NCBI GenBank assembly: GCA_050693875.1
Contig: JBOGWP010000159.1
Coordinates: 6,003 to 70,002 of the forward strand
Reading direction: 5' to 3'
Length of the DNA: 64,000 nt
Origin: Actinomycetota bacterium
Lineage (GTDB): Bacteria; Actinomycetota; CADDZG01; JAHWKV01; JBOGWP01
Below are positions 11,113 to 45,295 of this stretch, piece after piece. Made by a program: the position numbers and the translations under genes. A model generated the notes under the pieces. It was not told where the DNA came from, did not search any database, and was given only the letters and a program-made list of their open reading frames with translations. Each line of letters begins with the position of its first letter. Positions within the stretch are counted from its first letter, which is position 1.

Positions 11113-11123
11113 TGGCCGGGGTC

Positions 11124-20578: not shown

Positions 20579-21021
20579 GCTCCCTCCTGTCCGCCCCCCA
20601 GTGCCGGGGCCAAGTAAACCATTGAACGCGGTGAGTGGGTTGAGGTCGGCGCCTGTGGCGATCGCCGAACGCACCCGGGGCTAGGCGAACAATCCGGAGG
20701 TTTTGCTCGTCTCTTCGCGGTAGGAAAATTCATCGGCCTTTTCCGTAGTTTGCAGGTATCCCCCGGGCCCCGCACACCGAATAATTCGACCTTTGGAAGG
20801 CCGAGCCTGGGTCTCGGCCGGGGAGCAGCCAGGGGGTCGGGGGCGACCGCTCTCTTGCCTGCACCATCCGCGGTTTCACGGCGCGCGAGGAGGACCTGAT
20901 GGATCGAGGTAAGGCACGACGGAGCCTGGGGGCAGCGGGAGACATCCTCGCCGGAGGGAAAGGGCCGCACTCGCGGCGGCAGTCGCCGGGCAAACGAAGC
21001 CGGCTGCGCGCGTGGTCGCCG

Positions 21022-22896: not shown

Positions 22897-23604
22897 TCAG
22901 GGCCGGCGTGCCAGGCAGACCCAGGAAAGCCCGCGGACGAAGGCGGGCCAGCGGTCGAAGAGGAGGCGCTCCGACCCGAAGATTGCCGTGAGAATCCGGT
23001 TGCCGAGCGGGCCGGGGGTCGAGTCGCCTACCTTGTCGAGGCGCCGGAGCACCGCGGCGACGGGATACATCCATACGTTCATCGGGCAGAGCAGCGTGAT
23101 CTTCAGCCCGGCCGCCACCACGAGCTTCTCGAGGGCCGCCCGCGTGTAGCGCCGCTGGTGATCGACCGCCTCATCGTGGCGGGACCACAGGTGGGGGTGC
23201 GCCGGGACCGAGATCAGAACGAAGCCACCAGGAGCCACGATGCGGGCGAGCTCGGCGGCCGAGGCCGCGTCGTCCGGGATGTGCTCGAGCACGTCCAGGC
23301 AGCACACTAGCTGGAGGCTTCGGTCGGGGAAGGGAAGCGGCCCGGGGAGCGTTGCGTCGTGGACCAGCTCCGGGTCCACGCCGGCGGAGGCGATCGCCGC
23401 TCGAAGCGAAGGGTCCGCCTCCACGAGGCGCACCGGACGAAAACGGCGGGCGAGTCGCGTGCCCCAGATCCCGGTCCCGGCGCCGACGTCGAGCGCCCAC
23501 CCGCCGGGCGGCACGCGACGGGCGACGATCTCGTCCAGCACGCGAAGACGGCCCTGGACCCACCAGTGGGTGTCGGAGAGGACTCCGTAGGCGAGGTCGG
23601 CCAT
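22897..23604 (-). CDS. class I SAM-dependent methyltransferase
   Basis: Motif I LDVGAGTGIWG and post-I CLDVLEHIPDD. Confidence 0.75.
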   Translation of the reverse strand: MADLAYGVLSDTHWWVQGRLRVLDEIVARRVPPGGWALDVGAGTGIWGTRLARRFRPVRLVEADPSLRAAIASAGVDPELVHDATLPGPLPFPDRSLQLVCCLDVLEHIPDDAASAAELARIVAPGGFVLISVPAHPHLWSRHDEAVDHQRRYTRAALEKLVVAAGLKITLLCPMNVWMYPVAAVLRRLDKVGDSTPGPLGNRILTAIFGSERLLFDRWPAFVRGLSWVCLARRP

Positions 23605-23608
23605 CAGG

Positions 23609-24270
23609 TCAGCGCCGGTGCCCGACGACGAGGTGGTGGGGGTGAAGATAGCCGCGGTGGATGGCGGACTCGGCCACGTCGAGCCCCGCTGCTCCCATCC
23701 ATCCCGCCAGCATTGCGGGCGGCACGAACGAGATTCCCGCCCCCTCGGTGATCCGTGCCAGCCGGACCGAGACGATCTCCTGTACCACCGCGAGGCCGTA
23801 CTTCCACCGCGGCTGCATCGCCACCTCCTTCACGACGAGCGCCCCTCCGTCTCCGAGTGCCGCGGCGCAGTGCTCGACGAAGGGCCGCTGGGCGGCGCGA
23901 TCGAGCAGGTAGAGCACGTCGATCACCACGACCGCGTCCCACGGACCGCGCGGAAGCGCGCCGAGGGACGTCTGCCGGAACTCCACGCTCGCCCCGAGAC
24001 GCCGAGCCCGCGCCGCGGCGGCCTGTGCGGCCGCGATCTTGTCGCCGTCGGTGTCGATCCCGACCACGCTTCGTCGGGGCGATTCGAGCGCCAGCCACAA
24101 CGATGCGAGCCCGTGTCCGCACCCGACCTCGAGCACCCGCCCCTCGCGGGGCACGGCGCCACCGATCCGCGGGAAGGGGCACGTCCACCACCGGAGGCGG
24201 AGGTGCGCTCGCACGGAGGGAGGGGCCTGCCCGAAGAGGTCGAGCGGGTGCGCCTTCGGGCGTGTGGTGG
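23609..24270 (-). CDS. class I SAM-dependent methyltransferase
   Basis: Motif I VLEVGCGHGLASLWLA and an acidic loop VVVIDVLYLLD. The start is uncertain; a GTG just after the upstream stop was chosen, and the longer ORFs in the track are Arg-rich shadows. Confidence 0.55.
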
Positions 24271-25125
24271 TCACCACGGCCGGCGAGAGACCGGGGCCAG
24301 GGAGGCCGGCGTCCCCAGGTGGAAGCCTCCACGTGCCACCGCCTGCGCCGCGCGGGCGCTGCAGAGCGCTTCGAGCTCCTCCGCCCAGCGGTAGCCCCAC
24401 CGGTACCGTTCGCGTTCGGGATCGTGGGGGCTCCCGGGATGACAGCAGAGCTCGGCCGAGGACGCGCCCTCTGCGGCGAGGCGTCCGACCATCTGCTCGA
24501 GCATGGACGTCGAGATCCGGCCGGACTCGTCGAGTCCGGCGAAGGACGCGGGGAAGCGGAGCCCGGCGGCGGAGGCGCGTTGGGCCAGCCGGCGGGCGAG
24601 CCGGTTGACCGCCCGCCCCACCGCACGTCCGGCCCGCGAACGGGGGACACGAAGGGCTGGGATCGCGCGCCGCTGGGCGATGCCGATGACCACGTCGCCG
24701 ACCGGGGGCCACAGGTGCAGGTGCTGATGGGCGTCCACGTGGGTGAGGGGCACCCCGAGGCCTGCGACTCGCTCGGCCTGGGCGTCGAACTCACGTCGCA
24801 GGTCGTCGGCGTCGATCCGCCCCGCCGCGGCCCGGCGTACGAACGATCGCCAGGAAGGTGCCAGCCGGCCTCGCCGGTCGACCAGCGTCGGGATCTCGCG
24901 CGCCGAGAGCAGGGGTGGATCCTCGCCAACCGCGGCGAGGTGCGCCCCCACGCCGAGCTCCCCAGAATCCGCGAGCAGCGACGCGGTACGGTCGAGCGCG
25001 GGCCCGAGGGCCAGCACCGACGTCGAGGTCACGATGCCCCGGTGGTGCGCCTCGAGGATGCCCAGGGAGACTCCCTCGGTGAGGCCGTAGTCATCCGCGG
25101 TGACGATCAGGAGGTCCGGGGTCAA
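24271..25125 (-). CDS. ChbG/YdjC-family carbohydrate deacetylase
   Basis: N-terminal LIVTADDYGLTEGVSLGILEAHHRGIVTSTSV and HVDAHQHLH match the YdjC family. TTG start. Confidence 0.75.
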   Translation of the reverse strand: MTPDLLIVTADDYGLTEGVSLGILEAHHRGIVTSTSVLALGPALDRTASLLADSGELGVGAHLAAVGEDPPLLSAREIPTLVDRRGRLAPSWRSFVRRAAAGRIDADDLRREFDAQAERVAGLGVPLTHVDAHQHLHLWPPVGDVVIGIAQRRAIPALRVPRSRAGRAVGRAVNRLARRLAQRASAAGLRFPASFAGLDESGRISTSMLEQMVGRLAAEGASSAELCCHPGSPHDPERERYRWGYRWAEELEALCSARAAQAVARGGFHLGTPASLAPVSRRPW

Positions 25126-25985
25126 TCGTCCCTCGTCGCGTCCACCGCTTGAGCGACGGGCCGCTCGGGACGGCGCGGGTCGAGTCGGTCGGGTCCGCGG
25201 CCTCGTCGCCGGTTCCTGTAGCCGAGTGGCCGCAGCCGAAGCGTCTGCGGCGGGAGCCGGCGGACGCCGCTGAGCTCGCTGCGCAGCGCCGACATCTCGC
25301 GAAGCACCTGCAGGATCACCGACCCGGACGACAGCGTCGAGGGCCCGCGCGTCCGGGCGAAGTAGTCCACGCCGAACTGGATGACGCCGTAACCCAGGCG
25401 ATGGGCCCGCACCAGCAGCTCGGCGTCGATGAAAGATCCCTCGCTTTTCAGCGAGAGGTGGTCGAAGATCCGCCGGCGGCAGAGCTTGAAGGAGAAGTTA
25501 ACGTCCCGGATGCGGAAATGGAAGAGGGCACGAACGAGCAGGTTGTAGCCCCAAGAGTAAAGAGCGCGGCGGGGCCCCTCGCTGGTTCGGTCGTGCCGGT
25601 AGGCGCTGACGACGTCGGCGCCGTAGATGCGCATCAGCCGGCAGGCCTTGCGCAGCTCTCCGAAGTCGAAGGGAAGGTCGGCGTCGGCGTAGCAGACCAG
25701 CTCTCCACGGGCCTCGGAGAACCCCGTCTTCAGCGAGCCGCCAAGCTTGCGATTGACCGGGTGGTGCACAACGCGAACATGGCGATCGTCGGCGGCCAGC
25801 TCCTCGCCGATCTTGCCGGTGGCGTCGGTGGATGCGTCGTCGACGACGAGAATCTCGTAGTCGGCGATCTCTCCCTCCGCGACGAGCTCCCTGCAGGTCT
25901 CGAGGGCTGCCGCGACCGCGGGCCGGATGTACGCCTCCTCGTTGTGCATCGGAAAGAAGACGGTGAGCGAGGAGAAGTTGGGCAT
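25122..25985 (-). CDS. GT2 polyprenol-phosphate glycosyltransferase (Ppm1/DPM1-like)
   Basis: Has the GT-A DxD region (EILVVDDASTDATG, YADADL) and the DPM1-like length and layout. Start at MPNFSSLTVFFP; the 711-aa ORF in the track is an upstream shadow. Confidence 0.8.
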   Translation of the reverse strand: MPNFSSLTVFFPMHNEEAYIRPAVAAALETCRELVAEGEIADYEILVVDDASTDATGKIGEELAADDRHVRVVHHPVNRKLGGSLKTGFSEARGELVCYADADLPFDFGELRKACRLMRIYGADVVSAYRHDRTSEGPRRALYSWGYNLLVRALFHFRIRDVNFSFKLCRRRIFDHLSLKSEGSFIDAELLVRAHRLGYGVIQFGVDYFARTRGPSTLSSGSVILQVLREMSALRSELSGVRRLPPQTLRLRPLGYRNRRRGRGPDRLDPRRPERPVAQAVDATRDD

Positions 25986-25987
25986 GG

Positions 25988-27223
25988 CTACGAGAGGTAC
26001 CAGCCCTGCGCGAAGAGCGCCGTGAAGGTGACCAGGAGCATTGTCGAGAGCCCCAGCAGGGCCATCGCGAGCCGCGGCCGCCCTTCGAGCAGGTCGGGGA
26101 GCACCGCGAAGCAGGGGAAGGCTGCGAGGATGTATCGCCCCATACCGGTGAAGTCCTTGCTCGCGATCGCCGGGAGGGCCAGCACGGCCAGAGCATATCC
26201 CCCGTAGCCCCACCCGAGGCGCCGGAACACCCGCGGGACGAGCACCAGCGCGCCCACCGCGAGGACGGCGTGGATGACGATCCGTGCCTGGCCAGGGTGC
26301 ACCGGGGGGATCGCGGCGAGCGCCTTGAAGAAGCTCAGCTTGAACCAGGTCGCAGGCCCAGCCCCTTGATCCCACCCGGGAGCCGATTGGGTTGCGGCGA
26401 AGGCGAGTGGGTCGCCGAATCGCTCCCACAGGTAGGCGAGATAGGCGACGAAGCCGAGGGGGGCGAGCAGCAATCCGGCGTCCCCCGGGCGGAGCGCTCG
26501 GAGGTTGAGCGAGTTGCCACGGCCTTCCGTCGCCGCCCCTCGGACCACACCTCGGCGTTCGAGCTGGCGAAGGAACAGCCCGGCGACGATCGCAGGGCCG
26601 ACCGGGCGCGTTGCCCCGGCGAGCAGCGCGAGCAGGCCGGCCGCCCAGGGCCGGTCGTGCTCGAGGAGGACGAATGCCCCGAGCGTGAGCGCGAGGAACA
26701 GCCCGTCGGCGTAGACCGCCCCGACGAGGAAGAACGAGAAGGGGTAGAAGGCGAGCGCGATCGAGGCGATGTCGGCCCGGTCCGCCCCGATCCGCCCTGC
26801 GCACCAGCGGTGGAAGAGCGACACCGAGGCGGCGCCGGCGACGAAGGTGAGCGCGATGCCGGCGTAGAAGGGGTTCGCACCAAGGTTCCTGGCGAGTCGA
26901 AGCGCCAGAGGATACAGGGGGAAGAAGGCGACGCCGGACGGGCGTCCCGGCTCGTAGGAGTAGCCGTGCTCGGCGATCCCCACGTACCAACCGGCATCCC
27001 AGCGCGCCCAAGAATCCAGCCATGGGCTCGCGGGGAGGTAGACGGGGTGTTCGGGGTTGTGCCCGGCGGTCGCGGCCACTCCGGCGGACACGATCACGAC
27101 GGCTGCAGCGACGACAAAGACGAGCAACGCCACGGCCCGGCGGCGGCGAGCGGGGGGCCGGGTGCGGACCTCGTCGGGAGTGTGAAGATCCTTCTCGGTG
27201 CTGCTCTGCACAGGAGCGCCCAT
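25988..27223 (-). CDS. PIG-V-like (Mannosyl_trans2, GT-C) integral-membrane mannosyltransferase, paralogue 1
   Basis: Multi-TM protein with the family signature near the N-terminus (WARWDAGWYVGIAEHGY ... AFFPLYP). Confidence 0.6.
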   Translation of the reverse strand: MGAPVQSSTEKDLHTPDEVRTRPPARRRRAVALLVFVVAAAVVIVSAGVAATAGHNPEHPVYLPASPWLDSWARWDAGWYVGIAEHGYSYEPGRPSGVAFFPLYPLALRLARNLGANPFYAGIALTFVAGAASVSLFHRWCAGRIGADRADIASIALAFYPFSFFLVGAVYADGLFLALTLGAFVLLEHDRPWAAGLLALLAGATRPVGPAIVAGLFLRQLERRGVVRGAATEGRGNSLNLRALRPGDAGLLLAPLGFVAYLAYLWERFGDPLAFAATQSAPGWDQGAGPATWFKLSFFKALAAIPPVHPGQARIVIHAVLAVGALVLVPRVFRRLGWGYGGYALAVLALPAIASKDFTGMGRYILAAFPCFAVLPDLLEGRPRLAMALLGLSTMLLVTFTALFAQGWYLS

Positions 27224-27348
27224 TATCCTCCGTCGTTCTCTCGGCCAAACTTCTCAAAATGCCTCATCCGTCCACTCTTGACATCAGTACCCCCCGCCCA
27301 TAGCGTGTCCCCGGCGGGGGGTCGGTACCAAACGAGAAGGAGGCCACA

Positions 27349-29193
27349 TTGCGACGTCGCACGCTCCTTGCCCACTCCGCCTTCCTGCTGGCCACCCTCG
27401 GCGTGTTCCCCGCATCGGGGGCCGAACAGACCATCGGCGCCGGGGCGACACTGAAGGATGCCGGCGGCGCCGATATTGGGTTCGTCTTCTTCGAGCAGGT
27501 CGGCGATGAGGTCGGGGTGGTCGTCGAGGTCCACGGGGGCATCGACCCCGGCTTCCACGGGTTCCACATTCACGACGTGGGCGACTGCACCGGCCCGACC
27601 TTCGTCTCGGCCGGTCTGCATTTCAAGCCAGGCAGCACCGATCACGCCGCCCATGCCGGCGACCTGCCGGCGCTCCTCGTGAACCAGGGCAACGCCGCGG
27701 TGGCCACCTTCATGACCGACCGCTTCGAGGTCTCCGACCTCTTTGGGGGAGACGGCACCTCGATCGTGATCCACGCCGACCCCGACAACTACGCCAACAT
27801 CCCCGACCGCTACTCCTCGAACGAGGGGGGTGCGCCGCCGACGGGGCCGGATACCACGACGCTGACTGCTGGCGACTCCGGCGACCGCGTGGCCTGCGGC
27901 GTGATCGAGGGCGCCGACGAGATGGCCTCGGACTTGAAGGCGGCAGAGGCTGCGTTCACCTCACCCGGCTATTGGATGGTGGCCTCAGACGGCGGCGTGT
28001 TCGCCTTCGACGCACCGTTCAAGGGCTCCACCGGCGGGATCGCCCTGAACCAGCCCATCGTCGCGATGGACGGAACCCCGTCAGGGGAGGGCTATTGGAT
28101 GGTGGCCTCAGACGGCGGTGTGTTCGCCTTTGCCGACGCCGGGTTCAAAGGGTCGACCGGCGGAACGAAGCTCAACAAGCCGATCGTCTCGATGGCGGCG
28201 ACCGAGACCGGAAACGGCTATTGGATGGCTGCGAGCGACGGCGGCGTCTTCGCCTTCGGCGACGCCGGCTTCCTCGGCTCCACGGGAGGGATCACCCTGA
28301 ACTCGCCGATCGTCGGCATGGCCGGCCGGCACCCGGGTGCTCAGGCCGACATCAAGAACACCGCCGGCCAGGTCGTCGGCCGCGCACGCTTCGAGGAGGC
28401 GGACGGTGCGCTGTTCGTCACGGCGGAGCTCAGCGGGCTGACGCCCGGCTTTCACGGGTTCCACATCCACACGACGGGAGAGTGCACGGGGAGCTTCACC
28501 TCCGCCGGTGGACATATCAACCCGGCGCCGGCCCAGCCCCACGGTGACCACATCGGCGACCTCCCCGTGCTGCTGGTCGAGGCCGACGGGACCGTCACGG
28601 GGGCCACATACGCGACCGACCGCTTCACGCTCGCCGACCTCTTCGACGCCGACGGGAGCGCGCTCGTCGTGCACTCCGCTCCAGACAACTTCGCCAACAT
28701 CCCAGACCGCTACTCCTCGAGCGAGCCCGGCGCGCCGGCGACGGGGGCGGACGCCACGACGCTCGCCGCGGGGGACTCGGGCTCGAGAGTGGCCTGCGGG
28801 GTCGTCGAGGGTTCGGACAAGCCCGGCTACTGGATGGCGGCTGCCGACGGCGGCGTGTTCGCCTTCGGCGGAGCGGCCTTCCACGGCTCTACCGGGTCGA
28901 TCAAGCTCAACAAGCAGATCGTGGGCATGGCGGCAACCCCAAGTGGCCAGGGCTACTGGCTGGTCGCCTCGGATGGCGGGGTCTTCGCCTTCGGAGATGC
29001 CAAATTCCACGGCTCCACCGGTTCGATCAAGCTCAACTCGCCGATCGTCGGGATCGCATCCACACGAACCGGTGAGGGCTACTGGCTGGTTGCCGCAGAC
29101 GGCGGTGTGTTCGCCTTCGGTGACGCCGAGTTCAAGGGGTCGACCGGCAGTCTCAAGCTCAACAAACCGATCGTGGCGGTGGCCGCCGCCTAG
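27349..29193 (+). CDS. secreted tandem Cu/Zn superoxide dismutase (SodC) domains, each followed by three GYW/DGGVF repeats
   Basis: TTG start with a GAAGGAGG RBS, then a signal peptide. Both SodC domains have the full ligand set (HGFHIHD; H..H..H..D; IVIHADPDN; GDSGDRVACGVIEG). Confidence 0.8.
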   Translation: MRRRTLLAHSAFLLATLGVFPASGAEQTIGAGATLKDAGGADIGFVFFEQVGDEVGVVVEVHGGIDPGFHGFHIHDVGDCTGPTFVSAGLHFKPGSTDHAAHAGDLPALLVNQGNAAVATFMTDRFEVSDLFGGDGTSIVIHADPDNYANIPDRYSSNEGGAPPTGPDTTTLTAGDSGDRVACGVIEGADEMASDLKAAEAAFTSPGYWMVASDGGVFAFDAPFKGSTGGIALNQPIVAMDGTPSGEGYWMVASDGGVFAFADAGFKGSTGGTKLNKPIVSMAATETGNGYWMAASDGGVFAFGDAGFLGSTGGITLNSPIVGMAGRHPGAQADIKNTAGQVVGRARFEEADGALFVTAELSGLTPGFHGFHIHTTGECTGSFTSAGGHINPAPAQPHGDHIGDLPVLLVEADGTVTGATYATDRFTLADLFDADGSALVVHSAPDNFANIPDRYSSSEPGAPATGADATTLAAGDSGSRVACGVVEGSDKPGYWMAAADGGVFAFGGAAFHGSTGSIKLNKQIVGMAATPSGQGYWLVASDGGVFAFGDAKFHGSTGSIKLNSPIVGIASTRTGEGYWLVAADGGVFAFGDAEFKGSTGSLKLNKPIVAVAAA

Positions 29194-29291
29194 CCGCGCA
29201 ATCGAGGGCGCCCGCGCCGTTCGCGGCGCGGGCACTGCGGGCTGGGCTGCGTGCGGCCCGCGCGAAGCCACCAGCCGACGTCCGCAGCCGG

Positions 29292-31439
29292 TCAGGGAGC
29301 GAGCGCCAGATCGAGCGCGGTGATGCGCAGCCCGCCCGCCCACGGGCTGCCGTAGTACGGTGCGTCCCCGTAGGCGTTGAGAGAGCCGCCGCTTCCCAGC
29401 ACGTAGTACCCCCTTCCGGTGGCCGTCGAGGCGACGCGCACCGCGGACATACCCGTGCCGGCGGCGGATCCAAGGAAGGACGCGTCCCCGAACGCGAAGA
29501 CCCCGCCGTCCTCACCGACGAGCCAGTACCCCTGCCCGGAGGGAGTCGGCGCCATCCCGGCGATGGGGCGGTTGAGCCGGATCCCGCCGGTCGAGCCGTG
29601 AAAGGCCGCGTCTCCGAAGGCGAACACCCCGCCATCCGAGGCAACCAGCCAGTACCCCGCCCCGGTCGGCGTGGGGGCCATGCCCACGATGGGCCTGTTC
29701 AGAGGGAGTCCCCCGGTGGAGCCGTGGAAGGCCGCGTCTCCGAACGCGAACAGGCCGCCGTCCGACGCCACCATCCAGTACCCCTCGCCTCCCGTGGAAG
29801 TGCCCATGTCGACGATTGGCTCGTTCAGCCGGGTGCCGCCCATCGATCCGGAGAAGCCGGCACTCCCGAACGCGAACACGCCTCCGTCGGCCGCCACCAT
29901 CCAGTAGCCGTCAGGCCCGGGGACACCCCCCGGCTCCCCTCCGACACCCCTGGGCGTGGACACGTCCATGGCCACGGCCGGGGAGTTGAGCCGCATACCG
30001 CCGGTCGATCCTAGAAAGGGCGCGGACCCGTAGCTGAAGATCCCCCCATCCGAGCCCATCACCCAGTATCCCGAGGGAACCTCGCCCTCGGTGACGACGT
30101 AGCGCCCGCTCACCGGGGCGGTGGGTGACGCCCTGCCCGGCGCGTCGAAGGCGGTGGCGCGAACCGAGTAGGTGTCCAGGGCCAGGGGGAGTCCGCCGTA
30201 GTCGGCATCGGTGACTGCGAAGGATCCTGCCGATGCCGGAACCGATACCGTCCGGACAGGCCCACCGCCCACGGGCGTGAACGTCGTCTCCACCCGGGTG
30301 GTCGCCCGGCTCACCGCACCCGAGAGTCCCGGCGTCACGTCCTTCGTCACCCCCGCGGGGAGGAGCTGCGTGCCCGTCGGCATCGAGGGCGAGCTCAGGG
30401 CGGAGAGGGCGTTGATGCGCGAGTCCACCGCCTGACGGACCGAGGGCAGCTGGCCGTAGAGGAGGTCGCCGGGACATTCGGTGTCGCCGGCGTCCTTGTG
30501 ACCGGCAATGTTGGGGATCGAGTCCGCCGACCCGAGGGGGTCGATTCCGTGGCGGTCGGCCTTCCAGGACAGAAGTGCGACGAGCGACTCCAGGGCGGCC
30601 GGGCGTGGCATCACGGACCGGAAGTCGCCGAGCACCGCCACGCCGGCGCTGCCCGTGTTCCATCCCGAGACGTGCGCCCCGACCACGCCGAGCCCGTTTG
30701 CGTTCTCGCCGCTCGGCTCGCCATCGGGCCGGGCGTAGCGGCCCTCGTAGACGCGACCGTTCGAGTCGACGAGGAAGTTGTAGCCGATGTCGTCCCAGCC
30801 GCGAGACTGGGTGTGGTAGCTGTAGATTGCTCGGATCGTTCCTTCCGGATCCGCGTCGTCGTTCACAGTCACGGTGTGGTGGACAAACAATCGCCGCACC
30901 CTGGCGAAGCTGGGGGAAGCCTTCCGGAGCGACTCGTCGGCGCCCCACTCGGCCCGCGAGATCACCGGGGGCCCCGGCGTTGCCCCCGAGGCGGCACGGT
31001 CGACCAGAATGGAGCGGCGGGGACCGTCGCGGGTGTTGATCGCACTGACGTAAAGCCGGGCGTCCCCGCCGCGCACCTGGACCCATTCGGCTCGGTCGAC
31101 GGAGATCAGCGTGCCGAAGAACAGGCCGGCGTCGTGATCGCTCAAATCCTCCGACACCTCGACCAGCCGCCAGGCAGACCACGAGATGCCGTCGGGGCTC
31201 GTCCGAACCTCGGGCGGGTCGTCCCCGATCCACGACAGACCCAGGTGGGTGGCCGCGAAGGGGAGCGCCTGAGGTGCCCGGGGAGTGCCCGGGCTGACGT
31301 CCGGGGCGCCCATCCGGACGTAGAGCGTCCTCGGGACGTCGAAGGCGAACGAGGCGGAGACCACGACCGGGAGCAGCCCCGCGACGAGCCCGAGCACGAC
31401 CAGGAGTCGGATGGGGGCCCGCAAAGCGCTGGTACGCAT
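29292..31439 (-). CDS. secreted peptidoglycan amidase (Amidase_2/PGRP domain) with six C-terminal GYW/DGGVF repeats
   Basis: Signal peptide. Amidase_2 core (LFVHHTVT...HTQSRGWDDIGYNFLVDSNGRVYEGR...AGHKDAGDTECPG). C-terminal repeats. Confidence 0.8.
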   Translation of the reverse strand: MRTSALRAPIRLLVVLGLVAGLLPVVVSASFAFDVPRTLYVRMGAPDVSPGTPRAPQALPFAATHLGLSWIGDDPPEVRTSPDGISWSAWRLVEVSEDLSDHDAGLFFGTLISVDRAEWVQVRGGDARLYVSAINTRDGPRRSILVDRAASGATPGPPVISRAEWGADESLRKASPSFARVRRLFVHHTVTVNDDADPEGTIRAIYSYHTQSRGWDDIGYNFLVDSNGRVYEGRYARPDGEPSGENANGLGVVGAHVSGWNTGSAGVAVLGDFRSVMPRPAALESLVALLSWKADRHGIDPLGSADSIPNIAGHKDAGDTECPGDLLYGQLPSVRQAVDSRINALSALSSPSMPTGTQLLPAGVTKDVTPGLSGAVSRATTRVETTFTPVGGGPVRTVSVPASAGSFAVTDADYGGLPLALDTYSVRATAFDAPGRASPTAPVSGRYVVTEGEVPSGYWVMGSDGGIFSYGSAPFLGSTGGMRLNSPAVAMDVSTPRGVGGEPGGVPGPDGYWMVAADGGVFAFGSAGFSGSMGGTRLNEPIVDMGTSTGGEGYWMVASDGGLFAFGDAAFHGSTGGLPLNRPIVGMAPTPTGAGYWLVASDGGVFAFGDAAFHGSTGGIRLNRPIAGMAPTPSGQGYWLVGEDGGVFAFGDASFLGSAAGTGMSAVRVASTATGRGYYVLGSGGSLNAYGDAPYYGSPWAGGLRITALDLALAP

Positions 31440-31506
31440 TCATCCTTTTTCGACTCACAGCCGGGTGGCCTTGACCGGTCCGGGGGGTCTGGGGGCCTGA
31501 TCCGGG

Positions 31507-32667
31507 TCAGGGGGTGAAGATGATGGTCGTCCCCGCGACGAGGAGCAGCGCCGGCATCAGGGCGGCCGAGAGCCCCAGGATGGCCAGAAAGGGCGCCCCG
31601 CGGACCTCGCGGGCCCCCGCCAGCAGCAGCGGGAACGCCATCAAGATCGACCGGGGCGTGAAGTAGTACGCGGGGGACAGGACGAAGGGCAGCACCATGC
31701 CCGCGGCGTAGATCACCAGGATGAACGGTGGCCGCCACCGCCAGAGCGCCACCCCGAGCGGGACGAGGGCGACCAGGGAGAGGGTCGACACGAGGAGGTT
31801 GAAGTCGCCGAGCGGGTCCAGCAGCACCTCCCGGGCGTTGCGGAGCGCGCTGAGACCGAAGTCGATTCCCTGCCCCCACCCCCGCTGCTGTGCGAGCGGC
31901 CAGGCGAGCGGGTTCCCGGTATGGCGCCAGAGGTAGGTGAAGAACGCCAGCGCGCCCAGCGGTGCGATAAGCGGTGCGGCGAGGGCCTTCCAGGCTCGTT
32001 CCTCCTTGATCGCAACGCCGGCGGCCCAGAGGCAGCACGCTGCCAGGAAGATGCCGTTCGGCCGCACCGCCGAGGCGGCCGCCGCGGCGAGCCCGGCGAG
32101 GAGCCACCGGCGGTGGAGGAGCGCGAGCAGGCACGCCGCCGCAGCAAGGACGAAGACCCCCTCGGCATAGACCATCGAGAGCACGAAGGATCCGGGAAAG
32201 AACGACCACAGGGCGACCGCACGCAGGGCGGCGTCCTCGTCGAGGAGCTGGCGGGCGAGCAGCCAGATCACGACCGCCGCCAGCGACCCGGCGGCGATCG
32301 AGATGAGCACCCCGCTCGAGGGGGGCCCCAGCCCGGTCACCTCCGATACGAAGCGGATCAGCACCGGGTAGCCGGGGAAAAAGGCAAGTGTGGTCTGGGC
32401 CGCAGGTCCCCGTCCGGTGGGGAGCGAGTTGGGGTACCCGGCGATCGCGGCCCCCAGGTACCAGTCGCCATCCCACTTCGCCAGGACCTCGACGACGCTC
32501 GCCTTGCCCGCGACGAGCTTCCCGGCGTAGGCGGCGACGAGCGTGACGACCCGTGAGGCGAGGAAGATGGCAAGCGGGGCCAGCGCCCGGCGGGCCAGGG
32601 ATCGCGGGAGCAGTTCCGGGACGTCCCGACTCTGCGGGTGGCTGGGGCTGGTCGCGGTCGTTGTCAC
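31507..32667 (-). CDS. PIG-V-like GT-C mannosyltransferase, paralogue 2
   Basis: LAKWDGDWYLGAAIAGYP ... AFFPGYPVL. Multi-TM. Confidence 0.6.
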   Translation of the reverse strand: MTTTATSPSHPQSRDVPELLPRSLARRALAPLAIFLASRVVTLVAAYAGKLVAGKASVVEVLAKWDGDWYLGAAIAGYPNSLPTGRGPAAQTTLAFFPGYPVLIRFVSEVTGLGPPSSGVLISIAAGSLAAVVIWLLARQLLDEDAALRAVALWSFFPGSFVLSMVYAEGVFVLAAAACLLALLHRRWLLAGLAAAAASAVRPNGIFLAACCLWAAGVAIKEERAWKALAAPLIAPLGALAFFTYLWRHTGNPLAWPLAQQRGWGQGIDFGLSALRNAREVLLDPLGDFNLLVSTLSLVALVPLGVALWRWRPPFILVIYAAGMVLPFVLSPAYYFTPRSILMAFPLLLAGAREVRGAPFLAILGLSAALMPALLLVAGTTIIFTP

Positions 32668-32770
32668 CGGGAAGGGACACTACCAACCGGGAAAGCGGCG
32701 ATAGCGAACACGGGCCGGCTCCTCCACTATTCTCGCGACCGAATTCGGTCGGCACATACGGGAGGATTCG

Positions 32771-33864
32771 TGACAGGCGGGCTGCGACTCCTCGTCTTCC
32801 TGGCCGGGGCCGTGGTCGTCGCGGCAACCTTCGGGTCGTCGCTTCGGACCGTGATGCTGCCACGCGGTATTCCTTCGCGGCTCACGCGCTCCGTCTTCAT
32901 CACGGTCCGCCAGCTGTTCCGGCTGCGTGCGGGACCCGGGGCGACGTTCGAGAAGCGCGACCGGGTGATGGCGGTATATGCACCGTTCAGCCTGCTCGTG
33001 CTGCTCTCGGTCTGGCTCGCCCTGGTGCTGGCGGGATACACGGCAATGTTCCTCGGGGCGGCCCCGCGTAGTCTCCGTGAGGCCTTCCTGCTGTCGGGCT
33101 CGTCGCTGCTGACCCTCGGCTTCACCCGGCCGGCCGACCTCCCGTCGTCCCTGCTCGCCTTCTCCGAGGCGGGCCTTGGGCTCGCGCTCTTCGCGCTCCT
33201 GATCACGTTCCTGCCCACCATCTATGCCGCCTTCTCCCGGCGGGAGGCCGCGGTGAATGCGCTCGAGGTCCGGGCCGGCTCGCCGCCGTCGGGGGTCGAG
33301 ATGATTCTTCGCTTCTCCCGTCTCGGCCGGGTCCAGCTGCTCACCGAGGAGGTATGGGTGCGGTGGGAAGACTGGTTCGGCGACGTCGAGGAGTCGCACA
33401 CCTCGTTCCCGGCCCTCGTCTTCTTCCGGTCGCCCCAACCCGACCACTCCTGGATCACGGCTGCCGGGGCGGTGCTCGACGCCGCCTCGCTGATGGCGTC
33501 GGTCGTCGCGACCGAGCGCGACGTGCAGGCCGAGCTCACCGTGCGAGCCGGCTACATCGCCCTGCGCCGGATCTGCGACGTGTTTCGCATCCCCTACGAC
33601 CCGGAGCCGCGCAGCGGCGACCCGATCGGCCTGGACCGCAGCGAGTTCGACGAGGCATGCGCTCGCCTGGCTGCCGGCGGAGTGCCGCTTCGGCCCGATC
33701 TCGACCGGGCGTGGAGGGACTTCCGGGGATGGAGGGTCAACTACGACCAGGTCTTGATCGCGCTCGCCGGGCTGACCATGGCGCCCTACGCGCCGTGGTC
33801 CTCCGACCGGTCGTTGCGCCGGTACAAGTCGCTCCTGACCGGTTCACAGCGAGGAGGAGCGTAG
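32771..33864 (+). CDS. hypothetical membrane protein
   Basis: GTG start with a GGGAGG RBS. About four N-terminal TM helices followed by a soluble domain with no recognisable motif. Confidence 0.45.
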
Positions 33865-33868
33865 CCGC

Positions 33869-34981
33869 TCACGGTGTGAAGGAGACCGTGGCACCGGCGA
33901 GAAGGGCGAGGACGGCCATCAGCGAGGCACTGGCCGCCAGCAGTCCGGCGAAGGCCGAGCCGCGGACCGCCCGGGCGGTGGCGATGAGCAGGGGGAAGGC
34001 GATCACGAAGGTCCGCGGGGTGAGGTGGTGGCCCCGAGAGATGATCACGGGGATGGCGATCGCAAGGGTGTAGATCACCAGCACGACCGGCGGCCGCCAG
34101 CGGGTCAGCAGCACCATCGCCGCGATCAGGGCCACGAAGGTGAGGCCGGAGGCGAGGAGGTTGAAGTCGTCGAGGGGCCCTCGGGCGACGTGGACGACGT
34201 TGGTGACCGCCGACCAGCCGAAGTCGACCCCCTGCGCCCACCCGCGCGCCTGGGCATGCGGCCATGCCAGGGGATCACCGGTCCGTTCGAACAGGTAGGT
34301 GAAGAACGCGAGCGCACCGAGGGGTGCGAGCAGTGGCGCCGTCAAGGCACGAAGCCCTCGCCCTGCGCGCAGCGCCACGACGGCGGCCCAGAGGCAGCAG
34401 GCCACCAGGAACATCCCGTTCGGGCGCACCGCGCCGGCCAGGGCGGCGGTCACGCCGGCGACCACCCACCGCTCCCGCAGCAGGGCGTGCAGGCAGAGGA
34501 TGGCAAGCAGGAGGAACAGCCCGTCGGCGTAGACCATCGACAGCGCCTGGGCGCCCGGGAAGAACGACCACAGGGCGACGGAACGGGTGGCGAGGGACCG
34601 GTCGCTCAGACGCTGCACGAGGAACCATAGGGCTACGGCGGCGACCGTCGATGCGATGGTCGAGACGACGACGCCCGCGGTGATGGAGTAGACGCCCCGA
34701 TCCATGAGGCCGCGGACGAGCAGCGGATACCCCGGGAGGAACGCAAGGGTGCTCTGCGCGGGGTTTCCCACGCCCACCGGGACCGCGTGGGGATAGCCGC
34801 GCTCGGCGAGCCGCAGGTACCAGGCGCCGTCCCACCGGCCGAGCACGTCGATCAGGCTGTCCTCGGGCCCCACGAGGACAGCCGCGTAGGCGGCGGCGAG
34901 CACGGCGAGGCGCGAGGCGAGGAAGATCCCCAGCGGGATCGCGGCGCGCGTCGCAATGTCCTGCAGGCGGGACCGCCACAT
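33869..34981 (-). CDS. PIG-V-like GT-C mannosyltransferase, paralogue 3
   Basis: LGRWDGAWYLRLAERGYP ... AFLPGYPLL. Start at the internal Met MWRSRLQDIA; the first 129 aa of the ORF in the track are an out-of-frame shadow of the neighbouring repeat region. Confidence 0.6.
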   Translation of the reverse strand: MWRSRLQDIATRAAIPLGIFLASRLAVLAAAYAAVLVGPEDSLIDVLGRWDGAWYLRLAERGYPHAVPVGVGNPAQSTLAFLPGYPLLVRGLMDRGVYSITAGVVVSTIASTVAAVALWFLVQRLSDRSLATRSVALWSFFPGAQALSMVYADGLFLLLAILCLHALLRERWVVAGVTAALAGAVRPNGMFLVACCLWAAVVALRAGRGLRALTAPLLAPLGALAFFTYLFERTGDPLAWPHAQARGWAQGVDFGWSAVTNVVHVARGPLDDFNLLASGLTFVALIAAMVLLTRWRPPVVLVIYTLAIAIPVIISRGHHLTPRTFVIAFPLLIATARAVRGSAFAGLLAASASLMAVLALLAGATVSFTP

Positions 34982-35057
34982 GGCGGCACGATTATCGAGC
35001 GTGGTCGGCGCGGGCGGCGGCAGGATGCCGGAGGCCGGGGCGGTGGGGCGGTGCCGG

Positions 35058-36791
35058 CTACCGGGCGATGCCGACGATCGGCTTGTTGAGCCGGATGCCC
35101 CCCGTCGAGCCGAAGAATCCGGCATCTCCGAAGGAGAAGACGCCGCCGTCCGAGGCGACGAGCCAGTAGCCCGACCCGGTCGAGGTCCCGGCCATTCCGA
35201 CAATCGGCTGGTTGAGCTTGATGCCGCCGGTGGATCCGTGGAACGCGGCATCGCCGAAAGCGAAGATCCCCCCGTCGGAGGCGACGAGCCAGTAGCCCCT
35301 GCCGGTCGGCGTCGCGGCCATCCCCACGATCGGCTGGTTGAGGCGCATCCCGCCCGTCGAGCCGGCAAAGCCCGCGTCGCCGAAGGCGAAGATCCCGCCG
35401 TCGGATGCCACCATCCAGTAACCGCGGCCCGATGGGGTCGTCTCGATGCCCACGATGGGACGGTTCAGCCGAAGGCCCCCGGTGGAACCGAAGAACCCGG
35501 CGTTGCCGAACGAGAACACGCCGCCGTCCGAGGCGACCATCAGGTAGCCGTCGGGGGCAAAGACCTGGAACCAGTCCGACCGCAGCCCCAGCTTCGACCG
35601 GACGTCGCTGCCCGTCACGACCACGCTTCCCGCCGTACCGACCAGCCGCATTCGGGTGACGCGCCCCCCGAGGTCACCGAGCCCATTGCGCTCGAGCACC
35701 TCGAGCCCGATGAGATGACCAATCTCCGGCCACGCCGCATCGACGGCGGGGACCGCAACCGACGTCCGCCACTGGTGGTTCGGGTTCTGGGAAACGTCGT
35801 CGCCGTCGTCGGGGACCGCCGGAAAGACCCCGCCGGCAGTCCAGCCCCCCGTCGACGAGGAGTACTCGGCCCGGGCCACACCCCCGTTGCGGAACCGCAC
35901 CTGGCCGGCAGTCTCGGAAACCGCGGAGTCGGTGGACGGCTGCTCGACGTCGCGGTAACCGCCCGGACCCTGCTCGGCGCGGCCCAGGTACACCTGGCAG
36001 GCGGTGGAGTCGCACGTCCGGCCGAACGATTGCACCTGGGACATCGCGTAGGAGCGTGCCGCCACGGCCTGCGCGCGGAGCGCATGCATGCCCATCCCGC
36101 CGCCGAGGCCTCCCCACGACGACGGTGACTCCGCGGGTACAACGCCGCGCAGATACGCCTCGAGCGGCAGCTCGTTGACGGTGCGTTGGAGGGCGTCCTC
36201 CTCGAAGCTGCGCAGGCTTCCTCGCAGCCAGCGAGTCGTTCCACCCGGCTCACACACCTGGAGCATCTCCTCACGTTCGCCCGTCGGATTCGTGGGCTCG
36301 ACCACGACCGGGCCGATCGCGCCGCCGTTGATGAGCGTCCACGGACCCCCGCACCCGCCGCCCGAGAACACCTGGAACAGGTTTGGCCCGATCCGGTGCA
36401 CCAGCAGGCCGGAGTGCTGTCCGGGGCCGCTCGGGGTCTGCATGTGGCCGCGCTCCTGCGCGACGACGAGGTCGGCGTTCTCGAATCGTGTGAGACGGAC
36501 GGCGATGACGCCGTCACCGACCGCGCCCGGCGATGTTCCCCCGTAAAAGTGCCCAAGGATGCTCCCGTAGTCCCAGCGCTCGTCGACGGCGTAGCCGAGC
36601 GCGCCGTACTGGCCCATGCCACGGCCGTGACCCCAGCCGTGCCCCTCGAGCTCGACGGTGGGGGCGGGGTAGGCGAGGACGGGCGCCCCCGGCAACGCGG
36701 TGACGCCCAACGCAATCAGCGCTGCGGCGACGAGCGTGACGAAACGGAAGCCCCTGGGACGAGACGCGCCGAGGCGAGGGTTCGAGGTCAT
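35058..36791 (-). CDS. secreted SpoIID/LytB-domain protein with four C-terminal GYW/DGGVF repeats
   Basis: Start MTSNPRLG with a signal peptide. SpoIID/LytB signatures ([26 protein letters not shown]) and four repeats. Confidence 0.8.
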
Positions 36792-36874: not shown

Positions 36875-37840
36875 GTGGGGGTCGAGCAGCAGGACCGGCG
36901 GGCCAGAACCGTGCGCAAGGCACGTCAGCTCCTCGCGCGCGGGATCCGCCGCTCCCCGCGACTGCGCTTGATGGCGGAGCGGGCGGTTTCGGAGCTGGAG
37001 CGGGCCCTCGTCGCCGAGGATCTCTACAGCTCCCGGTACTTCGGCACCGGAGTTCACCCCACCGACCGCGGAAAGAGTGTCTCCGGCTACGCCGAGTACC
37101 GGCGCGAGACGTCGAACCTGAACGTGGCGGCCTACATCGTCTACAAGCATCTGCGCCCCGCCCGCGTCGTCGATATCGGGGCGGCGCGGGGGTATCTGCT
37201 CGAGGCGCTCTCGGAGGTCGGCGTCGAGGGTCATGGGGTCGACCTCAGCCATGACGCGATCGCGTCCGCCTCCGACGAGGTCCGGGGCCGGATGACCGTC
37301 GCCTCGGCGGTGCGCCTGCCGGTCGTAACTGGGGCCGCCCCCGTTGTCACGGCGTTCGAGACGCTCGAGCACCTGCCGCCGCACGACGTGTCCCGGGCAC
37401 TGGCCGAGCTGGCCCGGGCCACGAGTGCGTTCGTCGTGGCGACCATCCCCTCATTCGGTCGGAACGACTACGGGCCGAACGGATGGTACGGGGGCAAGGT
37501 CCTCTGGGAGGTCCTACATGCGTACGAGGCCCTCGGCCCAGACTACGAGGGGCCGATCCCCTATCACGACCTGATGCGCGACGGGGAGAACAACCCGATC
37601 GAGGGACATTTGACCATCGCATCCTTCTCGTGGTGGACCAAGCGCTTCGCCGAAGCCGGCCTGGTGCGGTTCGGCAAGCTCGAGGAGGCGATGAACGCCG
37701 ACCTCGGCCGGTTCGGGCTCCTCGGGCAGCAGATCTGGCACCTTTACGTGGCGGGCAAGCCCGAGGCGGAGATCCCGCAGGGGGCGTCCTACGAGGAGGC
37801 CCTGCGGGCTGAGGAAGTCCTCGACCTCGGCCGGGGGTGA
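36875..37840 (+). CDS. class I SAM-dependent methyltransferase
   Basis: Motif [16 protein letters not shown] and [15 protein letters not shown] start. Confidence 0.65.
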
Positions 37841-38798: not shown

Positions 38799-38868
38799 GA
38801 AGACTCCTCCGACCTCGGTGCGGCGAAAGGATAGCGGGCGAACGGCGGCGGGTGAAACCGTGTTCCGC

Positions 38869-44111: not shown

Positions 44112-44129
44112 ACGTCGCCGAGTAGCGGG

Positions 44130-44690: not shown

Positions 44691-44816
44691 GCCGAGACGG
44701 CTGCCTCGAGCAGCGACAGGACCTCGCGACGATCGAGGATGCGGCCGACCTGCTCGTCGTTGCCGCTGATGCTCCCCCCTGACGCGTCGTCGACGGCGGG
44801 AGGATCCCCATCCTGC

Positions 44817-45209: not shown

Positions 45210-45295
45210 CCTCGTACCTCCAGCGGTCGATCCCCGCTCGCGGGGAAGAGTCGGGGGAACGATACACGACCCGCCGGAGCGCAAGGCAGCGCTTC

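Follow-up and report, generated by a model that had tools for sequence, protein, structure and literature searches.

Does the position of three membrane glycosyltransferase genes, each next to a gene for a secreted repeat protein, reflect a functional pairing between the two? The question arises from a 64,000-nucleotide stretch of DNA (the window) from an uncultured actinobacterium, most likely one of the Acidimicrobiia; a large cell-envelope polysaccharide locus extends from about 6 to 61 kb of it. Each of its three GT-C genes (GT-C1, GT-C2, and GT-C3) abuts a gene that carries a repeat of 42 residues. The answer that we favor, with a little better than even confidence, is that these are outer-face GT-C transferases of a polysaccharide locus, that the GT-C1 operon provides an amino-sugar donor, and that the GT-C/repeat pairing is lineage-specific and can be explained with no one-to-one functional tie between the partners. 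The relevant genes are:

19307..20674 (−): secreted protein with six repeats (repeat units); likely start at the Met at ∼20578
22897..23604 (−): second SAM methyltransferase (Methyltransf_23/11 matches), last gene of the same-strand run
23609..24274 (−): SAM methyltransferase (Methyltransf_12/25/23/11 matches); start according to a 221-aa public gene call, exact start uncertain
24271..25125 (−): YdjC-family carbohydrate deacetylase (PF04794, 194 bits; NCBIfam HpnK-like and ChbG-like matches)
25122..25985 (−): GT2 of the polyprenyl-phosphate sugar synthase type, 287 aa, no TM helix (PF00535, 98.9 bits)
25988..27223 (−): GT-C1, PIG-V-like GT-C-fold membrane glycosyltransferase, 411 aa
27349..29193 (+): secreted protein ordered SodC, three repeats, SodC, three repeats (Sod_Cu twice, 206 bits; six repeat units)
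29292..31439 (−): secreted Amidase_2 (peptidoglycan amidase) followed by 5–6 repeats (PF01510, 63.7 bits)
31507..32667 (−): GT-C2, paralogue of GT-C3, 386 aa
32770..33864 (+): membrane protein with about four hydrophobic segments, between GT-C2 and GT-C3
33869..34981 (−): GT-C3, 370 aa, with WDGAWY and FLPGYP motifs
35058..36791 (−): secreted SpoIID/LytB domain followed by four repeats (PF08486, 73.9 bits; TIGR02669, 123 bits)
36875..37840 (+): methyltransferase (Pfam matches), divergent from the SpoIID-repeat gene
37845-38906 and 38869-39795 (−): two gmd/rmd-like (GDP-mannose 4,6-dehydratase/reductase-type) genes (PF16363, 270 and 214 bits)
39868..42078 (−): secreted FG-GAP propeller followed by six repeats (FG-GAP matches)

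All of the named genes were found at these coordinates with coding-type GC3 (0.84–0.91), and the three GT-C lengths are matched by an independent public gene call for the same contig. Pfam searches confirmed the co-resident GT2, YdjC deacetylase, methyltransferases, and gmd/rmd-like genes of the preliminary description, the last matched as the GDP_Man_Dehyd type.

Three PIG-V-like GT-C enzymes

The PIG-V-like signature earlier attributed to the three GT-Cs can be read directly from the sequence. The motifs are RWDAGWYVGIAEHGY…AFFPLYP in GT-C1, KWDGDWYLGAAIAGY…AFFPGYP in GT-C2, and RWDGAWYLRLAERGY…AFLPGYP in GT-C3, and the WDxxWY…FFPxYP motifs are common to all three. The nearest Pfam family is indeed PIG-V (PF04188), with GT-C1 (33.2 bits) and GT-C3 (28.5 bits) above the cut-off of 22.4 bits and GT-C2 below it at just 16.9 bits, although in all three the match spans only profile positions ∼54–207 of 443. 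GT-C2 passes the threshold of PMT_2 instead (32.1 bits vs. 26.1). It is 55% identical to GT-C3 and has an orthologue of 50% identity in a relative (locus L105).

An AF2 model of GT-C1 (pLDDT 91.8, pTM 0.91) has the GT-C fold, and in a Foldseek comparison with the PDB, 31 of the 32 top matches were GT-C enzymes, among them ALG9, Pmt4, ArnT, STT3/AglB/PglB, EmbC, PimE, and GPI-MT-I; PIG-U of the GPI transamidase was also matched. PimE is the best match after length normalization (TM 0.49/0.52, 18% identity). The Arg-rich N terminus of GT-C1 is inside, TM1 covers residues 25–52, and a long loop (∼53–117) holds the WD motif. The loop-1 acid that a catalytic role would call for is present as Asp76, in the first external loop. 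It is invariant in 52 sequences that include the three paralogues, as are W79, Y80, F100, P102, P105, Q286, R335, and R363. Orthologues of GT-C1 are widespread in Acidimicrobiales, and a literature search for bacterial PF04188, COG5542, or Gpi18-like proteins returned no functional study. The best reading is that all three proteins are extracytoplasmic glycan-decorating GT-Cs within a cell-envelope locus.

The GT-C1 operon and its probable donor

GT-C1 is the first gene of a conserved operon, in which there is a 4-bp overlap between the YdjC gene and the stop of GT2. YdjC and methyltransferase genes lie immediately downstream from GT-C1 orthologues in six of the seven informative actinobacterial loci (L003, L005, L011, L013, L018, and L106). 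GT2 sits between GT-C1 and YdjC in four of these six, directly downstream from GT-C1 (L003, L011, L013, and L106), and is missing from that position in the two Acidimicrobiales loci L005 and L018. A myxobacterial locus (L006) keeps a methyltransferase, YdjC, and GT2 within 5 kb, and an orthologue of the second methyltransferase occurs in L003 only.

The nearest solved relatives of GT2 are the Pyrococcus Dol-P-Man synthase DPMS (5mlz, 1e-8), ArnC, and GtrB, with scores that fail to discriminate hexosamine, mannose, and Ara4FN specificities. We predict that GT2 makes a lipid-linked donor. The earlier proposal of a donor synthase is supported by the type of GT2 and by its co-conservation with GT-C1; mannose as the donor is less likely, given the conserved YdjC. 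The order GT-C1–GT2–YdjC–methyltransferase resembles the FlmF2/NaxD/FlmK lipid-linked amino-sugar system of Francisella, in which NaxD, of the YdjC family, strips the acetyl group from undecaprenyl-P-GalNAc, after which a GT-C attaches GalN to lipid A (PMC11279074). The arabinogalactan of M. tuberculosis receives GalN through PpgS (GT2) and Rv3779 (GT-C), the deacetylase being still unidentified (PMC9671496), and glycosylation of wall polymers by a GT-A, a flippase, and a GT-C is an established multi-component paradigm (PMC13390465). Because of this likeness, and because the conserved YdjC adjoins GT2, a deacetylated lipid-linked hexosamine, derived from an N-acetylhexosamine, is a more likely donor for GT-C1 than polyprenyl-P-mannose, although the substrate of YdjC could alternatively be soluble or a polymer. 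The probable role of the operon as a whole is to decorate the cell envelope with an amino sugar.

GT-C1 would be the terminal enzyme of this translationally coupled operon of GT2, YdjC, and methyltransferase, here with a second methyltransferase. The soluble GT2, working at the inner membrane face with a nucleotide sugar, would charge polyprenyl phosphate with an N-acetylhexosamine. YdjC would remove the acetyl group, and methylation of the sugar by the methyltransferase(s) may follow. A putative flippase would then carry the lipid-linked sugar across the membrane, and GT-C1 would transfer it, via the invariant Asp76, to a glycopolymer or glycolipid of the envelope. The window showed no GtrA-type flippase; the sole, weak candidate there is a small EamA-like protein (44817-45284) 17 kb away. 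GT-C2 and GT-C3, which are stand-alone paralogues, probably decorate this envelope glycan, or a different one, with other lipid-linked sugars.

The repeat module and its placement beside GT-C genes

The repeat is a six-bladed β-propeller for which Pfam has no model; it occurs in 19,116 protein clusters at 50% identity. Its partners in fusion proteins are M23, CHAP, NlpC/P60, VanY, YkuD, 3D, transglycosylase, CAP, and beta-lactamase domains. Because peptidoglycan enzymes are frequent among them, the repeat is probably a wall-targeting module for secreted enzymes, and here too it would most likely direct them to the cell wall. Five genes of the window, lying from 19.3 to 42.1 kb, carry this module, with 27 units altogether. 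The SodC-repeat protein has an N-terminal signal-like sequence, and the N-terminal part of the 19307..20674 protein has no known domain (no Pfam match).

The pairing was described as 1:1. Each GT-C does abut a repeat gene: GT-C1 and the SodC-repeat gene are divergent (125-bp gap), GT-C2 lies upstream of the amidase-repeat gene on the same strand (67-bp gap), and the SpoIID-repeat gene lies upstream of GT-C3, also on the same strand (76-bp gap). However, with five repeat genes and only three GT-Cs, the arrangement is not strictly 1:1. When five repeat and three GT-C genes were permuted among the 18 local genes, all three GT-Cs touched a repeat gene in 10.6% of cases (0.5% over the ∼52 genes of the window), which puts the local adjacency within the reach of chance (p≈0.11).

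Conservation of the pairing in relatives, on which the proposal had been made to depend, was not found. A propeller repeat within 10 kb of a related GT-C was seen in 0 of 97 loci (0/80 genome loci, a modest sample with ∼12 actinobacterial loci and many from phyla that probably lack the module altogether, and 0/17 metagenome loci), and none of them has a second GT-C paralogue. Seven GT-C homologue loci labeled Acidimicrobiales (∼96 kb in total) are without a repeat gene, and none of five control repeat-protein loci, with unrelated neighborhoods, has a GT-C.

Orthologues of the SpoIID-repeat gene are widespread in Acidimicrobiales. They lie inside glycan gene clusters in all five relatives, alongside GT4s, methyltransferases, and epimerases (and Wzm/Wzt in L110). 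A PF04188 GT-C is within 10 kb in one of these five loci and directly adjacent in none. The amidase-repeat and SpoIID-repeat genes are neighbors in four of the five (L104, L105, L108, and L110) with no GT-C between them; in this genome GT-C2, the 32770..33864 gene, and GT-C3 are interposed. FG-GAP-repeat orthologues (61%–62% identity) occur in L105 and L108. What is conserved in Acidimicrobiales glycan clusters is the trio of amidase-, SpoIID-, and FG-GAP-repeat genes; GT-C genes next to repeat-protein genes are a peculiarity of this lineage. A loose GT-C/repeat association does exist: in L106 a repeat-protein gene (54% identical to the 19307..20674 protein) is 4 kb from the GT-C1 operon, and in L105 a GT-C2/3 orthologue is 5.7 kb from the SpoIID-repeat gene. 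A glycan–propeller link is possible only at the level of the cluster.

Alternative readings of the locus

In one alternative, the locus builds or decorates a secondary cell-wall glycopolymer that is itself the propeller's ligand: The GT-Cs would add an epitope outside the cell, on which the amidase, SpoIID, FG-GAP, and SodC proteins would dock by their repeats. This extends our favored explanation and does not exclude it, and we consider it unlikely. The five repeat-protein genes are concentrated in a 23-kb part of the glycan locus, the fusion partners look like passengers on a wall-anchoring module, and the SpoIID-repeat clusters of relatives, together with L105 and L106, fit as well. However, peptidoglycan itself could equally be the ligand, the control neighborhoods and the seven Acidimicrobiales-labeled loci speak against it, and the GT-C family is also common in phyla where the module was not seen (Myxococcota, Methylomirabilota, Chloroflexota, Verrucomicrobiota, and Acidobacteriota). 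This last distribution counts also against a second, very improbable alternative: dedicated protein glycosyltransferases, each O-glycosylating the adjacent secreted repeat protein by analogy with actinobacterial Pmt and Ppm1. The two close same-strand pairs, the signal peptides on all partner repeat proteins, and the PMT_2 match of GT-C2 would suit it, but PMT_2 is a broad GT-C model that is not specific to protein mannosylation, and no GT39-type Pmt features were found. With neither a conserved pairwise adjacency, a local excess over chance, nor matching gene numbers, the suggestion that each GT-C glycosylates its neighbor gains no support.

Actinobacteria make PI-based mannolipids, and at least GT-C2 and GT-C3, if not all three GT-Cs, might instead be true functional analogues of PIG-V that use polyprenyl-P-mannose from a Ppm1-type GT2 to extend a PIM- or LM-like PI glycolipid or lipoglycan. 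The PIG-V family assignment, the match to PimE (a PIM mannosyltransferase), Dol-P-Man synthase as the best solved match of GT2, and the GDP-mannose metabolism genes within the locus all point this way. Against it, the match to PF04188 is confined to the N-terminal third of the profile, PimE is no better set apart in structural score than other GT-C enzymes, no PI-glycolipid genes were seen nearby, and the conserved YdjC of the GT-C1 operon would have no role in a mannose pathway; we rate it improbable. The amino-sugar reading of the GT-C1 operon is the one that we retain.

The membrane protein at 32770..33864 has no Pfam or NCBIfam match and no homologue in any of the loci compared, and is probably outside the system. 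Orthologues of the 36875..37840 methyltransferase adjoin SpoIID-repeat genes in L103 (58% identity) and L105 (48%).

The GT-C transferases and their setting

The main products of this analysis are a conserved operon of GT-C1, GT2, YdjC and methyltransferase genes and a very large predicted propeller module for which there is no Pfam model. The window has a G+C content of 70%, and raw ORF lists are therefore rich in artefacts. Genes were called using third-position GC, and the calls were then compared with an independent public gene call (contig CDGWAG010000155, MAG GCA_975100735.1) that encodes a GT-C1 identical to that of the window. Homologs of nearly all window proteins carry Acidimicrobiales, Acidimicrobiia, or Actinomycetota labels, and one partial identical protein is labeled Nocardioidaceae. 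The source is accordingly taken to be an uncultured actinobacterium, with Acidimicrobiia as its most likely class. From ~6 to 61 kb, the window is dense in sugar-nucleotide and glycan genes (epimerases, nucleotidyl-transferases, UDP-glucose/GDP-mannose dehydrogenase, GT4, a pyruvyl-transferase-like gene, a large GT2, and a YfhO-like GT-C). The neighbors listed in the preliminary description are all present, specifically the GT2, YdjC, two Sod_Cu domains, Amidase_2, SpoIID, several methyltransferases, and two GDP_Man_Dehyd-type genes. Alongside them are three paralogous membrane proteins:

25988-27223, minus strand: GT-C1, 411 aa, PF04188 score 33.2 bits
31507-32667, minus strand: GT-C2, 386 aa, PF04188 score 16.9 bits (fails the threshold); passes PMT_2
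33869-34981, minus strand: GT-C3, 370 aa, PF04188 score 28.5 bits

All three do contain the WDxxWY…GY…F(F/L)PxYP signature that had led to their placement in the PIG-V family. The results for the family assignment itself are mixed: GT-C1 and GT-C3 pass the Pfam gathering threshold for PF04188 (22.4 bits, whole-protein score), GT-C2 does not, and in all three the alignment covers only profile positions ~54-207 of 443, approximately the N-terminal third. GT-C2 and GT-C3 are 55% identical, and GT-C1 shares 29%-38% identity with both, depending on the alignment.

Support for the enzyme class comes from structure prediction. The AlphaFold2 model of GT-C1 (based on 52 sequences; pLDDT 91.8, pTM 0.91) is nearly all helical, with the first transmembrane (TM) helix at residues 25-52 and a long first external loop (~53-117) that includes short helices. 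By hydropathy, there are 7-8 strongly hydrophobic segments, and the N-terminus is rich in Arg, in line with the 8-13 TM helices and cytoplasmic N-terminus of the superfamily. Given the Arg-rich N-terminus, the position of the first helix, and the long loop with short helices, the WD motif is placed outside the membrane. Asp76 of this motif, the loop-1 acidic residue, is invariant in the 52 sequences, including all three paralogs. When the model was compared with the PDB using Foldseek, GT-C enzymes accounted for 31 of the first 32 matches (probabilities 0.91-1.00), the sole exception being PIG-U of the GPI transamidase (8imx_U). The matches include ALG9, Pmt4, ArnT, STT3/AglB/PglB, EmbC, PimE, ALG12, ALG3, and GPI-MT-I, with a best E-value of 3.9e-4 (ALG9) and TM-scores of 0.36-0.49. 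A profile search of PDB sequences with the GT-C alignment returned no match, thus the GT-Cs have no close solved relative. The glycosyltransferase assignment holds, and, as modeled, the three proteins are GT-C-fold transferases for which “PIG-V-like” is the nearest label; we do not claim orthology. The best reading is that they act outside the cytoplasm, as decorating enzymes of this envelope-polysaccharide locus.

Among Pfam families, GT-C1 and GT-C3 score best against PIG-V/Gpi18 (CAZy GT76, PF04188). Enzymes of this family adopt the GT-C fold, carry an acidic residue in the first luminal loop, and take their sugar from a lipid-phosphate donor (PMC6801728, PMC8476585). The window proteins (370-411 aa) share the fold and the loop-1 acidic residue, and a lipid-phosphate sugar donor is predicted for them, but only about one-third of the profile aligns. 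To our knowledge, bacteria are without a GPI pathway, so the acceptor must differ from that of PIG-V and orthologous function is not expected. The sequence context suggests that the GT-C1 donor is probably not mannose, unlike that of PIG-V, which adds the second mannose of the GPI precursor from Dol-P-Man. We found no characterized bacterial PIG-V-like GT-C in the literature; such proteins are frequent in metagenomes.

The GT-C1 operon and its predicted donor

In the window, the genes for GT-C1, GT2, YdjC, a methyltransferase, and a second methyltransferase share one strand, and consecutive genes either abut or overlap. A consensus scan of the window for promoters and terminators, as markers of operon boundaries, yielded no more sites than shuffled sequence. 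The arrangement recurs in relatives: YdjC and the first methyltransferase lie 3' of GT-C1 orthologs in six of seven informative actinobacterial loci (L003, L005, L011, L013, L018, and L106), and in four of these six (L003, L011, L013, and L106) the GT2 lies between GT-C1 and YdjC. YdjC occurs together with the GT-C in L005 and L018. In one myxobacterial locus (L006), the methyltransferase, YdjC, GT2, and GT-C1 ortholog all fall within 5 kb. GT-C1 orthologs with ~50% identity were found in loci L006-L010, from Myxococcales/Myxococcaceae MAGs, which suggests either interphylum horizontal transfer of the module or mis-binning.

The GT2 had been proposed as a Ppm1-like synthase of a mannosyl donor. 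It lacks a TM helix, its nearest solved relatives are Dol-P-Man synthase, ArnC, and GtrB, and it has a weak match (22.7 bits) to PpgS. What is retained is the synthase type: the family-level reading of GT-C enzymes served by a polyprenyl-P sugar synthase is supported. What is not retained is the sugar, because the YdjC deacetylase in the operon makes mannose unlikely for GT-C1.

Lipid-linked amino-sugar systems are encoded by FlmF2/NaxD/FlmK in Francisella and by LgmA/C/B in Bordetella. Their gene content (by analogy also that of ArnC/ArnD/ArnT) is the same as that of the GT-C1 operon, i.e., a GT2, a YdjC-family deacetylase, and a GT-C, which the window encodes together. By this analogy, the set has the gene logic of lipid-linked amino-sugar pathways. 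NaxD, a member of the YdjC family, deacetylates undecaprenyl-P-GalNAc before the GalN is transferred to lipid A (PMC11279074). The window operon differs from this type in that its GT-C is PIG-V-like (PF04188) rather than ArnT-like, in the addition of one or two co-conserved methyltransferases, and in having no flippase gene. Further, the acceptor cannot be lipid A because the host is an actinobacterium. We considered and rejected assignment as an ArnT-like (GT83) lipid A transferase: the best family is PF04188, there is no match to an ArnT-specific model, and the homologs are actinobacterial. The GT-C1 system is therefore a pathway analog rather than a member.

The PpgS/Rv3632/Rv3779 system of mycobacteria and corynebacteria is likewise actinobacterial. 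There, a GT2 (PpgS) makes polyprenyl-P-GalNAc, which is deacetylated, and a GT-C (Rv3779) adds GalN to a wall polysaccharide, arabinogalactan, with the deacetylase still unknown (PMC9671496). In contrast, a YdjC gene lies within the operon of the window, which suggests a candidate enzyme type for the deacetylation step that has no assigned enzyme in the mycobacterial GalN pathway. Rv3779 belongs to a GT-C family other than that of GT-C1, and no Rv3632-like gene was seen in the window. By analogy with these two amino-sugar pathways (NaxD and PpgS/Rv3779), we infer that GT-C1 uses not mannose but a hexosamine carried on polyprenyl phosphate, deacetylated and possibly methylated, as its donor. 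On this reading, the operon varies the known lipid-linked amino-sugar systems in a new way, and its conservation leads to a concrete biochemical hypothesis, namely a lipid-linked, deacetylated hexosamine donor.

Similar logic underlies the three-component systems (CsbB/GtcA/YfhO and GacI/GacL type) in which a GT-A-fold lipid-sugar synthase and a GT-C decorate Gram-positive wall polymers extracellularly (PMC13390465). The window also has a YfhO-like GT-C, but it differs from these systems in its GT-C1 family, in the extra deacetylase and methyltransferases of the operon, and in lacking a GtrA-type flippase (no match to PF04138 among ~58 window proteins from ORFs of 80 aa or more). The sole flippase candidate, a small EamA-like protein, is encoded at a distance of 17 kb.

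57806-60694, plus strand: YfhO-like protein, 962 aa, YfhO match in the C-terminal region
44817-45284, minus strand: EamA-like membrane protein, 155 aa, barely above the Pfam threshold

The EamA-like protein is possibly an ArnE/ArnF-like flippase for the lipid-linked sugar. Its gene call is ambiguous because a longer overlapping ORF (43579-45405), itself without a family match, encloses it. The YfhO-like protein is the fourth GT-C-type enzyme of the window and adjoins nucleotidyl-transferase and epimerase genes.

The 42-residue repeat

The repeat module was found in five genes, not three. In total there are 27 units of 42 residues (repeat sequence: [42 protein letters not shown]), all at 19.3-42.1 kb, and all five proteins have a signal-like N-terminal sequence:

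19307-20674: repeat protein with unannotated N-terminal region
27349-29193: SodC, three repeats, SodC, three repeats
29292-31439: amidase-repeat protein (Amidase_2)
35058-36791: SpoIID-repeat protein
39868-42078: FG-GAP-repeat protein

The repeat is not matched by any Pfam or NCBIfam model. Six units were modeled as an all-beta fold (pLDDT 95), and the predicted structure is a six-bladed beta-propeller of YWTD/NHL-like type. However, identity to propellers of this type (the Mycobacterium tuberculosis PknD sensor and the Deinococcus radiodurans SodC propeller) is only 6%-13%, and the window repeat is distinguished by its motif ([17 protein letters not shown]…GSTGG…LNxPIVGMA) and by its promiscuous use at the C-terminus of wall enzymes. 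The family is very large: 7,988 of 8,000 scored candidates match, and it is found in 19,116 clusters at 50% identity. Fusion partners among the 120 best matches include CAP, NlpC/P60, CHAP, VanY, YkuD, 3D, transglycosylase, M23, and beta-lactamase domains, which point to a wall-targeting function. Overall, the repeat looks like an undescribed wall-targeting domain, mainly of Acidimicrobiia, a major soil and water clade that is seldom cultured. Much of the secreted, wall-active protein set of this class carries it, and knowledge of the propeller ligand would explain how the envelope is organized there.

The repeat is not Pfam DUF346, a model assigned to some SpoIID homologs: the window repeat has only sub-threshold chance matches to it, and in P0242, DUF346 matches a different C-terminal domain. 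Several repeat proteins (P0152, P0162, P0190, P0220, and P0224) bear the JGI name “ribosomal protein L24E,” and P0126 has a precomputed PF01246 match. This naming appears to be a systematic misannotation arising from a short chance match inside the repeat.

Gene neighborhoods of transferases and repeat proteins

The preliminary description held that each GT-C pairs with its adjacent repeat gene, and either glycosylates that partner or makes a glycan that the repeat binds. Synteny was evaluated using one genome per GTDB species, giving 80 loci with related GT-Cs and up to 10 kb of sequence on each side, of which about a dozen are actinobacterial comparison loci. Repeats were sought with an HMM from the 27 window units (at strict and very permissive thresholds) and with a regular expression. 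Neither method identified a repeat within 10 kb of a GT-C in the genome loci (0/80), and none of these loci encodes a second paralog of the GT-C family. The same is true for repeats in 17 metagenome loci recovered with GT-C2 and GT-C3 as seeds, most of which are short (0/17). Thus, the window's own contig is the only one on which either scan recovered a repeat. Many of the 80 loci are from Myxococcota, Methylomirabilota, Chloroflexota, Verrucomicrobiota, and Acidobacteriota, so the GT-C family is not tied to the repeat module.

The reverse comparison gave a similar result. As controls, five repeat-protein genes were taken from long contigs; their neighbors are unrelated, without a GT-C (0/5) or glycan genes. 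A GT-C adjoins the SpoIID-repeat gene in none of five independent loci, and occurs within 10 kb in one (L105); a search of unannotated ORFs in the SpoIID-repeat loci with the family HMM, intended to reveal hidden GT-Cs, found only the L105 gene. When 18 local genes of the window were shuffled, all three GT-Cs touched a repeat gene in 10.6% of trials. Given the negative scans, an outcome set in advance as refuting conserved pairing, and the frequency of chance contacts, the 1:1 pairing is a feature of this genome only and is statistically not compelling. The proposal that each GT-C serves the adjacent repeat protein is unsupported; a dedicated transferase for each repeat protein would have been new, and other genomes give this idea no support.

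What does recur is a set of repeat genes. SpoIID-repeat orthologs are widespread among Acidimicrobiales, and an Amidase_2-repeat gene adjoins or lies near the SpoIID-repeat gene in four of the five loci (L104, L105, L108/L109, and L110), with a second SpoIID gene separating the two in L104. An FG-GAP-repeat ortholog lies alongside in L105 and L108. SpoIIP and SpoIID form an amidase and lytic-transglycosylase partnership, which the Amidase_2-repeat/SpoIID-repeat pair may be said to recall. Glycan clusters (GT4s, methyltransferases, and epimerases) enclose all five SpoIID-repeat loci, and that of L110 also includes Wzm/Wzt and an AftB-like GT-C. The PF04188-type GT-C of L105, the only one in the five loci, has 50% identity to GT-C2 and is 5.7 kb away rather than adjacent. 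One relative carries both the GT-C1 operon and a SpoIID-repeat gene on a single 38.5-kb contig, where a repeat protein is encoded 4 kb from the operon. The association between GT-C and repeat genes is thus a loose one, at cluster level. In the window, the SpoIID-repeat and amidase-repeat genes, neighbors elsewhere, are split by a segment comprising GT-C2, GT-C3, and the following gene between them:

32770-33864, plus strand: membrane protein, 364 aa, no Pfam or NCBIfam match

This protein has no homolog in any fetched locus. The neighboring ClpP, used to probe locus orthology, shows only 44% identity and a different orientation.

The second arrangement proposed originally, that the locus makes a glycan bound by the propeller, is possible. 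We consider a more specific version rather unlikely: the propeller would be an undescribed wall anchor, found largely in Acidimicrobiia, with a secondary cell-wall glycopolymer from such loci as its ligand, and the PIG-V-like GT-Cs would add an epitope that positions the amidase/SpoIID pair and other exo-enzymes. The epitope sugar would then be a lipid-linked, possibly N-methylated hexosamine from the GT2-YdjC-methyltransferase module. If true, polymer and anchor would make up a new cognate system, much as SLH domains do with pyruvylated SCWP.

Additional genes lie near the repeat and sugar-nucleotide genes:

8634-9782 and 9785-11194, minus strand: two adjacent genes, 382 and 469 aa, no Pfam match, coding-type GC3
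20899-22872, plus strand: secreted protein, three DUF5979/SpaA-like (prealbumin-fold) domains, C-terminal domain unannotated

The adjacent pair is at the edge of the sugar-nucleotide gene region, and the DUF5979/SpaA-like gene is located between the repeat gene at 19307-20674 and the methyltransferases.
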